From sequence record OQ442786: a stretch of 44,509 nt of DNA; one strand, written 5' to 3'. Under the pieces are notes generated by a model. That model did not search any database. It saw nothing but the letters and a program-made list of their open reading frames with translations, and was not told where the DNA came from. This DNA is from Escherichia phage JSSK01. The position numbers and the translations under genes were made by a program. Shown one piece after another: positions 43,477-44,509 of the stretch (positions within the stretch are counted from its first letter, which is position 1; the number at the start of each line of letters is the position of its first letter).

Positions 43477-43785
43477 TTGGATAAATTTACTGAAACAGTG
43501 ACAGGCTGGCTTCTCGCCGCCGCGCTAGCCGGAGGGGTAATCGGACTACGACAACATAAGTCCGCTATTTCTGGCCCTATCGACGGCTTCTGCTTCATCG
43601 CTACTGGTTTCGCCTGCGCCGTATTTGGCGCACCTCTCGCAGCTCAATGGTTCGGTATCACGGGCGACCGTGAAATCGCTGGGTTGGGCTTCATTATTGC
43701 TATTCTCTGGATGCCTATTTATTCCCGTCTCTCCGGTATCGTCGCCGGAGAATACATCTCACGTCGAGGAGGCCCAGATGAATGA
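43477..43785 (+). CDS. holin-like membrane protein (three predicted TM helices)
   Basis: TTG start 6 nt after GGAGGA SD; three hydrophobic segments and charged C-terminus; directly upstream of endolysin. Confidence 0.55.
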   Translation: MDKFTETVTGWLLAAALAGGVIGLRQHKSAISGPIDGFCFIATGFACAVFGAPLAAQWFGITGDREIAGLGFIIAILWMPIYSRLSGIVAGEYISRRGGPDE

Positions 43786-44050
43786 ATTATTCTGGTTCGG
43801 CGGTATGCTGGCAATCGGAGGCACATCGCTGTTTAATGTGTACCATCCCAGTGTGGACGACGGATTATTTGGTCGGGTGCTTTATATCCTGACTGCTATC
43901 GTCTGCGCCGCTGGATGTATCCACCTGTTACAGGGCAGCATGTCACCCACGTTGCCAGAGACATTAATCACATTAGTTGCGCTGCGCCAGATTCGCCAGG
44001 CGTGGCTGTCATACGGAGGACATAAGCGTGTCTCGAAACATTTCAGATAA
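43778..44050 (+). CDS. second lysis-cassette membrane protein (two predicted TM helices; holin/antiholin-like)
   Basis: ATG after GAGGAGG SD overlapping upstream stop; two hydrophobic helices. Confidence 0.45.
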   Translation: MNELFWFGGMLAIGGTSLFNVYHPSVDDGLFGRVLYILTAIVCAAGCIHLLQGSMSPTLPETLITLVALRQIRQAWLSYGGHKRVSKHFR

Positions 44051-44509
44051 TGGATTGCATTTTACCGCCGCATTTGAGGGATTCCGCGGAACTGCGTATC
44101 GTGCTACGCCGAACGAGAAGTACCTGACTATTGGCTACGGAAGCTATGGTCCGCATGTTAAGGCGGGGCAGACTATCACCCCCGGGCAAGGCCTCCTGTT
44201 ACTGAACCGTGATATGGCTAAAGCCGTAGCTGCGGTTGGCGCGGCTGCACACCATTCGCTGACGCAGGCGCAGTTTGATGCTGTTTGCGACCTGGTCTAT
44301 AACGCGGGCGCTGGCGTGATTGCTGCTACTACGGGCACGGGTAAGGCGCTGCGTTCTGGTGATATCACGACGCTGCGGGCTAAGCTGGCGCTGTTCATCA
44401 ACCAGAATGGTAAACCGTTACTTGGTCTGCGTCGCCGTACTGCGGGTCGTCTGGCGTTGTTCGACGGTAAACAGTGGCAGGAGGCGGAGGCTATCGGGAG
44501 GGCTGTTAA
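44028..44509 (+). CDS. endolysin, T4-lysozyme-like (GH24) fold, 3' end truncated by window
   Basis: GTG start after GGAGGA SD; FEGFRGTAYRA...TIGYG resembles the phage lysozyme catalytic region; ORF runs off the window end. Confidence 0.7.
   Translation, partial: MSRNISDNGLHFTAAFEGFRGTAYRATPNEKYLTIGYGSYGPHVKAGQTITPGQGLLLLNRDMAKAVAAVGAAAHHSLTQAQFDAVCDLVYNAGAGVIAATTGTGKALRSGDITTLRAKLALFINQNGKPLLGLRRRTAGRLALFDGKQWQEAEAIGRAV

Follow-up and report, generated by a model that had tools for sequence, protein, structure and literature searches.

The lysis genes of Escherichia phage JSSK01 were studied in sequence record OQ442786, a stretch of 44,509 nucleotides (nt) that is referred to here as the window. 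Three tightly packed, overlapping genes lie on the + strand at 43477-44509, each with a GGAGG ribosome-binding site according to the list of open reading frames (ORFs) and reading of the sequence, and they encode two membrane proteins, ORF1 and ORF2, and an endolysin (Table 1). It can be said with high confidence that this cassette is an ordinary and already known Kagunavirus module of holin and endolysin genes, which would lyse E. coli together with a spanin pair encoded elsewhere. The endolysin lacks the Asp of the canonical T4-lysozyme active site; this trait is real, but a study of 2014 had already described it and put it to the test in close relatives. Taken as a whole, the analysis indicates that the endolysin is very probably an active T4-lysozyme-fold (GH24) muramidase of a 'long-loop, Asp-less' subclade, with Glu17 as the essential general acid.

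The Asp-less endolysin and its characterised relatives

The initial annotation had described a lysis cassette of two membrane proteins and a GTG-initiated endolysin in which the Glu and the TIGYG block were kept and the Asp expected about nine residues after the Glu was replaced. The cassette was borne out by the ORF list and by matches to PHROG profiles and to PF00959, and the replacement of the Asp was confirmed by alignments made with phmmer and MAFFT. Over residues 15-138 the endolysin scored 89.9 bits with PF00959 (E 2.1e-25; gathering score 22.3). It keeps Glu17 and Thr34-Ile-Gly-Tyr-Gly38, and there is no Asp between Glu17 and Thr34. When the protein was compared with solved canonical lysozymes using phmmer, FEGFRGTAYRATPNEKYLTIGYG was paired with FEGTRFTAYDDG--VGIWTIGTG, which put Ala26 at the canonical Asp position. 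In the MAFFT alignment with T4 lysozyme, the sequence of which was checked against PDB 2LZM/1LYD, this position was taken by Pro28. The distance from Glu to Thr was +17 in the window endolysin versus +15 in the canonical enzymes, the hairpin loop being two residues longer; Thr34, in the TIG(Y/I)G strand, aligned with Thr26 of T4 lysozyme but stood at +17 and not at +15. Alignment to GH24 lysozymes yielded no canonical triad. Tested against the pattern Glu-8aa-Asp/Cys-5aa-Thr (aa, amino acids), the endolysin had neither Asp nor Cys at the second position, and this triad defines the canonical subgroup and not the Pfam family.

T4 lysozyme (gp e) and P22 gp19 have the Pfam family, the Glu at the end of the N-terminal helix and the TIG(Y/I)G strand in common with the window endolysin. 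Conserved residues of the C-terminal domain (D62, D84, N92, G94 and R137) are likewise common to the window endolysin and the T4/P22 type. The T4/P22 type has Asp or Cys at Glu+9 and Thr at +15, whereas the window endolysin has Ala26, Thr at +17, a loop longer by two residues, and Glu30, Tyr32 and Tyr40.

When 1.84 billion representatives of 50%-identity clusters were searched, 6408 hits with E values of at most 0.001 were obtained. The best 150 of these 6408 hits were aligned to the query, and 146 of them covered the motif; the best 150 are biased to the query's own clade, and counts out of 146 are not a share of all GH24 proteins. Glu was found at position 17 in 144 of the 146 clusters and Thr at position 34 in 143, and position 26 was Ala in 58 clusters, Pro in 47, Cys in 15 and Asp in 18. 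Nine residues lay between Tyr24 and Thr34 in 111 of the 146 clusters, and 108 of these 111 had Glu30 and no Asp. The canonical Asp together with a seven-residue spacer and without Glu30 was found in 18/146 clusters, and only 1 cluster had both Asp and Glu30. The two classes were also separated at positions 32 and 40 (Tyr32 and Tyr40 in long-loop sequences versus Val and Thr in short-loop sequences), Glu30 standing opposite a gap.

The window endolysin has the long-loop pattern, with Y24-RATPNEKYL-T34, Ala26, Glu30 and GYGSY40. The same pattern was found by tblastn against phage genomes and by direct inspection in lysins of Jerseyvirus, a Pantoea phage, Dhillonvirus, Salasvirus BSP2 and Lactococcus Ceduovirus. 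The lysins of BSP2, of the phi29 group, and of Ceduovirus have an N-terminal GH24 domain with the long-loop Asp-less motif that is about 41-43% identical over residues 5-92. The lysin of BSP2, a Bacillus phage, is a longer modular enzyme with C-terminal repeats of the kind that binds Gram-positive walls, whereas the window endolysin is a single globular domain. Judged from these alignments, the long loop without Asp characterises a clade and is not peculiar to JSSK01. The motif, which had been considered a deviation, turned out to typify a large GH24 subclade that had already been characterised (Lys68, EC340/8HP8, BSP2, Ceduovirus and Dhillonvirus). A pseudogene or a sequencing error behind the missing Asp was rejected because Ala26 and Glu30 were invariant in 26 of 26 aligned close relatives and the pattern was present in 111 divergent clusters.

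The best PDB match of the endolysin was 8HP8, the crystal structure of mtEC340M (E 7.9e-96 over 161/161 residues, about 92% identity). EC340, of E. coli phage PBEC131, and mtEC340M are like the window endolysin in family (PF00959), in length and in the FEGFRGTAYRATPNEKYLTIGYGSYG motif, including Ser39. The window endolysin differs from EC340 by a few surface substitutions, and mtEC340M is an engineered protein with seven changes. EC340 was shown to be active in a zymogram and to be antibacterial (Hong et al. 2022, PMC8886149).

The absence of Asp was described for Lys68 of Salmonella phage phi68, which has "no aspartic acids between the Glu and Thr" (Oliveira et al. 2014, PMC4188523). In that study, Lys68 had a muralytic activity of 400 U/uM, the Glu18Ala variant was inactive with an unchanged circular dichroism (CD) spectrum, and the Thr35Ala variant had wild-type-like activity. 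When the mutagenic primers for Lys68 were placed on the endolysin gene of Jerseyvirus PVP-SE2, the sole mismatch was the engineered one at the Glu codon; the homologous sites in the window are at 44066 and 44110. It follows from this mapping that Glu18 of Lys68 corresponds to Glu17 of the window endolysin and Thr35 to Thr34. Considering that Thr35Ala retained activity, a catalytic role of Thr34 in the Asp-less clade is doubtful.

Lys68, which is of Jerseyvirus type, is an orthologue of the window endolysin with the motif E...YRAT(K/P)NEKYLTIGYG; for the PVP-SE2 protein, which is nearly identical to Lys68, the identity to the window endolysin is 78%. Lys68 differs in its length of 162 aa, ATG start, one extra N-terminal residue and Salmonella host. 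The first membrane protein beside the Jerseyvirus-type endolysin is only 25% identical to ORF1. The zymogram and the site-directed mutagenesis by which the initial annotation had proposed to check the enzyme are already published for orthologues with 78-92% identity (PMC8886149, PMC4188523). No further information on catalytic residues was obtained from the papers on KBNP1315, LysP6, LysSE24 and XFII.

The N-terminus of the endolysin, MSRNISDNGLHFTAAFEG, is polar, no hydrophobic window was found before residue 85 in the hydropathy analysis, and the catalytic Glu is already reached at residue 17. Because there is no N-terminal hydrophobic segment rich in Gly and Ala, a signal-arrest-release (SAR) endolysin was rejected. 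For the same reason the endolysin is, as far as its sequence tells, a soluble, holin-dependent enzyme.

Catalytic mechanism of the Asp-less enzymes

Glu30 is near-invariant, and position 26 is limited to small residues. From these two features it may tentatively be proposed that the two-residue loop insertion delivers the carboxylate of Glu30 to the vacated Asp20 site. Such enzymes would have the arrangement Glu-12aa-Glu-3aa-Thr, with a small Ala, Pro or Cys at the old Asp position, and would represent a distinct GH24 subtype; we regard this as possible, though somewhat short of probable. Alternatively, Glu30 could have a structural role, and MAFFT paired it with Glu22 of T4 lysozyme. In T4 lysozyme, Glu22 forms a salt bridge across the cleft. 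Wang et al., who described the mtEC340M structure in Acta Cryst F in 2023, reportedly predicted three active residues and may already have named Glu30.

A change of chemistry was also considered, in which the loss of Asp would make the enzyme a lytic transglycosylase that forms 1,6-anhydro-N-acetylmuramic acid (1,6-anhydro-MurNAc), like the Glu-only lambda R class. The activity of Lys68 Thr35Ala, which implies that the water-positioning Thr of the T4 lysozyme type is dispensable, is consistent with this reading, and so is the existence of a lambda-type GH24 group that has Glu only and no general base (Table 2, PMC2976769). In addition, no muropeptide product analysis was reported in the papers on Lys68, EC340, LysSE24 and XFII. 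However, the window endolysin is by sequence of the T4/P22 type (PF00959) and not of the lambda type, and the near-invariant Glu30 in the longer loop is an alternative carboxylate that could sustain hydrolysis. Published accounts also call these enzymes muramidases, though by homology only. Overall, transglycosylation appears unlikely. The paper of Wohlkonig et al. (2010), to which the Lys68 study refers with regard to 'two GH24 subgroups', was set aside as a description of the Asp-less class: it contrasts the T4 type with the lambda type and has no Asp-less T4-type group.

According to another explanation, the loss of Asp would mark an attenuated or 'detoxified' lysozyme domain similar to that of SpmX, and the antibacterial effect would be exerted mainly on membranes by a cationic amphipathic C-terminus. 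The endolysin is strongly basic (19 Lys and Arg versus 10 Asp and Glu) and weakly matches the NCBIfam model of the SpmX lysozyme family (E 1.8e-4), and in SpmX the Asp20 position is said to be altered, as reportedly described by Randich et al. in 2019. Nevertheless, EC340 clears peptidoglycan in a zymogram, the muralytic activity of Lys68 is abolished by Glu18Ala while the fold is unchanged by CD, and in hundreds of lytic phages the gene stands where a lysis cassette has its endolysin. We consider this explanation highly improbable.

Membrane proteins and spanins

Homologues of all three cassette ORFs were found in hundreds of phage genomes, and therefore the cassette pattern is not due to chance. 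The same order of the three genes was found in Jerseyvirus and Dhillonvirus. The proteins of Jerseyvirus PVP-SE2 were 25% (ORF1), 41% (ORF2) and 78% (endolysin) identical to those of the window, and the respective values for Dhillonvirus WF5505 were 52%, 51% and 47%. ORF1 and ORF2 overlap by 8 nt, and ORF2 and the endolysin gene by 23 nt. The three genes are tightly packed, and their translation is probably coupled.

Both ORF1 and ORF2 have the features by which holins are recognised, being small transmembrane (TM) proteins that are encoded beside an endolysin and have a charged C-terminus. Hydropathy analysis of ORF1 revealed three hydrophobic segments (approximately residues 9-24, 36-56 and 66-84), its C-terminus is of mixed charge, and a PHROG profile search matched it to phrog_2359 'holin' (7.8e-30). 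The TTG start of ORF1 was supported by its Dhillonvirus homologue ('3 TMD', 52% identical), which begins with MDK at an ATG. ORF2 matched phrog_2508 'holin' (1.9e-33) in the same kind of search and was 41% identical to 'holin class I' of Jerseyvirus PVP-SE2. It has one strong hydrophobic segment (residues 30-52) that is followed by an amphipathic helix and by the basic C-terminal tail GGHKRVSKHFR, and its N-terminal segment 4-20 is weaker, Gly-rich and below the Kyte-Doolittle threshold. Thus, of the topologies initially proposed, the three TM segments of ORF1 behind a TTG start held, and the description of ORF2 as a '2-TM' protein is plausible but not firm.

Expression of the second gene of Jerseyvirus S10, which overlaps the lysin gene, lowered viable counts by 2 log; expression of the first gene had no such effect. 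Considering this toxicity and the basic C-terminal tail, ORF2 may be the stronger of the two candidates for the holin, and ORF1 could act as a co-holin or regulator. The opposite assignment, in which ORF1 is the true holin and ORF2, instead of being the main hole-former, serves as an antiholin, resembles a pinholin or has an accessory function, is conceivable but less likely than not. ORF1 leads the operon, resembles class I holins in its three clear hydrophobic segments and carries a holin annotation; the weak, Gly-rich first hydrophobic segment of ORF2 may recall the releasable first TM domain (TMD1) of pinholins. However, the highly basic C-terminal tail typical of holins is found in ORF2 and not in ORF1, the drop in viability in the S10 experiment went with the lysin-overlapping gene, and ORF1 is much less conserved between genera than ORF2 (25% versus 41%). 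The initial description of ORF1 as holin-like is upheld by its PHROG match, but the identity of the primary holin is less clear, the S10 data favouring the second gene.

During lysis, one or both of the small membrane proteins would accumulate in the inner membrane and form holes, and these holes would give the soluble cytoplasmic endolysin access to the murein. The spanins would then fuse or disrupt the outer membrane. The initial annotation had regarded the cassette, together with distant spanin genes, as an unusual distributed lysis system. Spanin genes were indeed found at 7961-8456, in the head-morphogenesis module and about 8 kb downstream of the endolysin gene on the circular map, but their distance from the cassette proved to be not unusual. 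Homologues of the i-spanin were present in 506 phage records, and the endolysin-to-spanin distance was 7.2 kb in ULINTec2 and 8.4 kb in TUMS_E19, the two other relatives measured. Given these 506 records and the similar spacing of 7-8.5 kb in the two other genomes, distant placement of the spanin genes is, on comparative grounds, recurrent in this phage group. In PQ417132, the i-spanin gene lies between the Hoc-like and scaffold genes.

The o-spanin matched phrog_5672 at 7.4e-30 and phrog_1267 at 5.3e-20, and its gene overlaps the i-spanin gene by 155 bp in a different frame ('overlapped' architecture). A 'Jersey' overlapped spanin family that includes K1G, K1H and K1ind (Kagunavirus), Jersey-like and Dhillonvirus-like phages was published by Kongari et al. 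2018 (PMC6139136). Its members have a 155-bp overlap, Cys45 and Cys67 in the o-spanin and polyglutamine (polyQ) stretches in the i-spanin (PMC6139136). The window spanins have all the features of this family, and the overlap and the Cys45 and Cys67 numbers match exactly.

In the closest GenBank relative, PQ417132, the o-spanin is annotated at 39039-39185 as a protein of 48 aa that starts from an internal Met and is without a lipoprotein signal. The 87-aa ORF that starts from the GTG at 8193 in the window has an LSAC lipobox, and with this start its cysteines fall at the published positions Cys45 and Cys67. PHROG 5672 is a 47-residue profile of the truncated o-spanin form only.

The window and the lambda S-R-Rz/Rz1 region have in common the logic of holin, then endolysin, then spanin. 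In contrast to lambda, the window has two separate membrane-protein genes and not one dual-start S gene, a GH24 endolysin of T4 type and not a lambda-type transglycosylase, and spanin genes that are about 8 kb off in the head module and not adjacent. In T4 and T7, too, lysis genes are commonly scattered.

Several points weigh against the reading of the cassette as a holin-endolysin module with an active GH24 muramidase. The activity of this exact endolysin would follow from that of orthologues with 78-92% identity. The AlphaFold2 model, which was built from a 26-sequence alignment with every other row at least 81% identical to the query, had a mean predicted local distance difference test (pLDDT) score of 64 and fell below 50 for residues 1-60, the catalytic half, where it is unusable. 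The mechanism that the authors of the Lys68 study put forward relies on Glu alone and is substrate-assisted and retaining; it was proposed without product analysis (PMC4188523). For the Asp-less enzymes, both the choice between hydrolase and transglycosylase chemistry and the substitution of Glu30 for Asp20 stand at the level of inference. For the membrane proteins, neither ORF1 nor ORF2 matched a curated Pfam or NCBIfam family, and the holin label comes from PHROG annotation only. The S10 study, which holds the only functional data on homologous membrane proteins, used large tags (52 kDa), is weak and called the first gene product 'lysin'. The roles proposed for the Kagunavirus ORF1 and ORF2 are inferred from sequence and from homologues.

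Genome context, transcription signals and significance

The region 43477-44509 was 99.5% identical at the DNA level to Escherichia phage vB_VIPECOTH07, a Kagunavirus (Guernseyvirinae), and its identity to many other Kagunaviruses was about 90%; the nucleotide search matched 130 phage records. In the GenBank records of near relatives, vB_VIPECOTH07 among them, the cassette genes are labelled holin, holin and endolysin, and the labels 'class I' and 'class II' are used inconsistently for the holins across Kagunavirus records.

The endolysin gene has the GTG start that was initially assigned to it but is incomplete in the window, where it consists of 160 codons and 'AA'; the missing 4 nt are the rest of the last Lys codon and the stop codon. 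In two near-identical phages, the gene ends with ...GGG AGG GCT GTT AAA TGA and is followed by the first bases of the window. Because these relatives continue past the endolysin stop into the first bases of the window, the latter is, by this comparison, a permuted, essentially complete phage genome. The junction between the end and the start of the window is 2 nt (AT) shorter than in the two near-identical phages. This gap is probably an artefact of linearisation or trimming of the record and not biology. If the window ends were joined directly, the endolysin end ...AVK-stop would become ...AVKMDEYEGV-stop.

Variants of the cassette were observed in several relatives. In PV040721 (BUCT825), an otherwise 99%-similar Kagunavirus, a gene annotated as 'endonuclease' (392-739) lies directly upstream of the lysozyme gene and overlaps it, and the lysozyme has an ATG start (MRNISNNG...). 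Apparently, BUCT825 contains a homing-endonuclease-type insertion between the second membrane-protein gene and the endolysin gene. In MT711528 (fTaEco03), about 300 bp are inserted upstream of the lysis genes and carry, at 2578-2709, a 44-aa ORF that has no counterpart in the window and is annotated 'putative antiholin/holin class II'; the conserved leader hairpin was kept after the insertion. The Salmonella phage nctD30 (ON409568, a Jerseyvirus) has at 344-1386 a Kagunavirus-like endolysin, 90% identical to that of the window, and upstream of it two ORFs of 282 and 291 nt in a PVP-SE2-like layout, as judged from their lengths. This suggests mosaic exchange within the lysis cassette of nctD30. 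In Dhillonvirus WF5505 (NC_073060), the start of the RefSeq lysozyme coding sequence (1552-1986) is placed too far downstream, at VPYFATKKEQ...; tblastn homology starts 51 nt before the annotated coding sequence, and the annotated protein is without the N-terminal helix and the catalytic Glu.

A hairpin was found in the leader of the cassette, and its 3' arm holds the Shine-Dalgarno sequence of ORF1. The 99-nt leader fold had a minimum free energy of -25.5 kcal/mol and a z-score of -3.25, none of 200 shuffles being as good, and the z-score of the 61-nt fold was -2.66. The 75-nt leader (43402-43476, loop included) was 96-100% identical in five of the aligned Kagunaviruses, whereas the flanking ORFs were only 84-95% identical. 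Hairpins of different sequence were also found just before the equivalent start codon in a Jerseyvirus (locus position about 905-936) and in Dhillonvirus WF5505 (locus position 941-968, annotated as a terminator). The leader hairpin may be a translational or terminator gate on the first lysis gene. Two terminator-like hairpins follow the cassette across the junction, and the first of them is likely to mark the end of the lysis transcription unit. A simple terminator scan called neither of the two hairpins. In the GenBank annotation of Jerseyvirus PVP-SE2, a rho-independent terminator is placed just after the endolysin gene and is followed by a promoter.

Table 1. Coordinates of the lysis genes, active-site residues and putative signals in the window
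Feature	Position	Strand	Remarks
ORF1, holin-family membrane protein	43477-43785	+	TTG start; GGAGG 43465-43469 (7 nt upstream); 102 aa
ORF2, holin-family membrane protein	43778-44050	+	ATG start; GAGGAGG 43766-43772; 90 aa
Endolysin, GH24 (PF00959)	44028-44509 (runs off window)	+	GTG start; GGAGG 44015-44019 (8 bases upstream); 161 aa when complete
Glu17	44076-44078	+	Aligns with Glu11 of T4 lysozyme
Ala26	44103-44105	+	Asp20 position of T4 lysozyme (phmmer); Glu17+9
Glu30	44115-44117	+	Four residues before Thr34
Thr34	44127-44129	+	Aligns with Thr26 of T4 lysozyme
i-spanin (Rz-like)	7961-8347	+	128 aa; phrog_2536 3.4e-56; N-terminal TM residues 1-24; polyQ stretches
o-spanin (Rz1-like)	8193-8456	+	87-aa precursor; GTG start; LSAC lipobox (Cys22); Cys45; Cys67
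Leader hairpin	43432-43471	+	AUCCUCCAG(22-nt loop)CUGGAGGAU; 9-bp stem, 43432-43440 pairs with 43463-43471
Terminator-like hairpin and U-run	128-159	+	About 125 nt downstream of endolysin stop across junction; -15.1 kcal/mol, z -2.69
Promoter-like site TTGACA-17-GATACT	165-193	+	Between the two terminator-like hairpins
Second terminator-like hairpin, eight U's	233-264	+	-13.8 kcal/mol, z -2.81
Sigma-70-like TTGACT	287		After second terminator-like hairpin

As a discovery, the cassette matters little: annotated relatives, a crystal structure, activity assays and active-site mutagenesis exist. The enzyme family is already under antibacterial engineering (EC340/LNT113, Lys68, LysSE24 and XFII), and the mechanism, whether Glu-only, with Glu30 as a surrogate base or transglycosylase, bears on the rational engineering of these lysins. 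If the proposal on Glu30 is true, the catalytic subtype would span Guernseyvirinae, Dhillonvirus, Salasvirus (phi29-group), Lactococcus Ceduovirus and many modular lysins.

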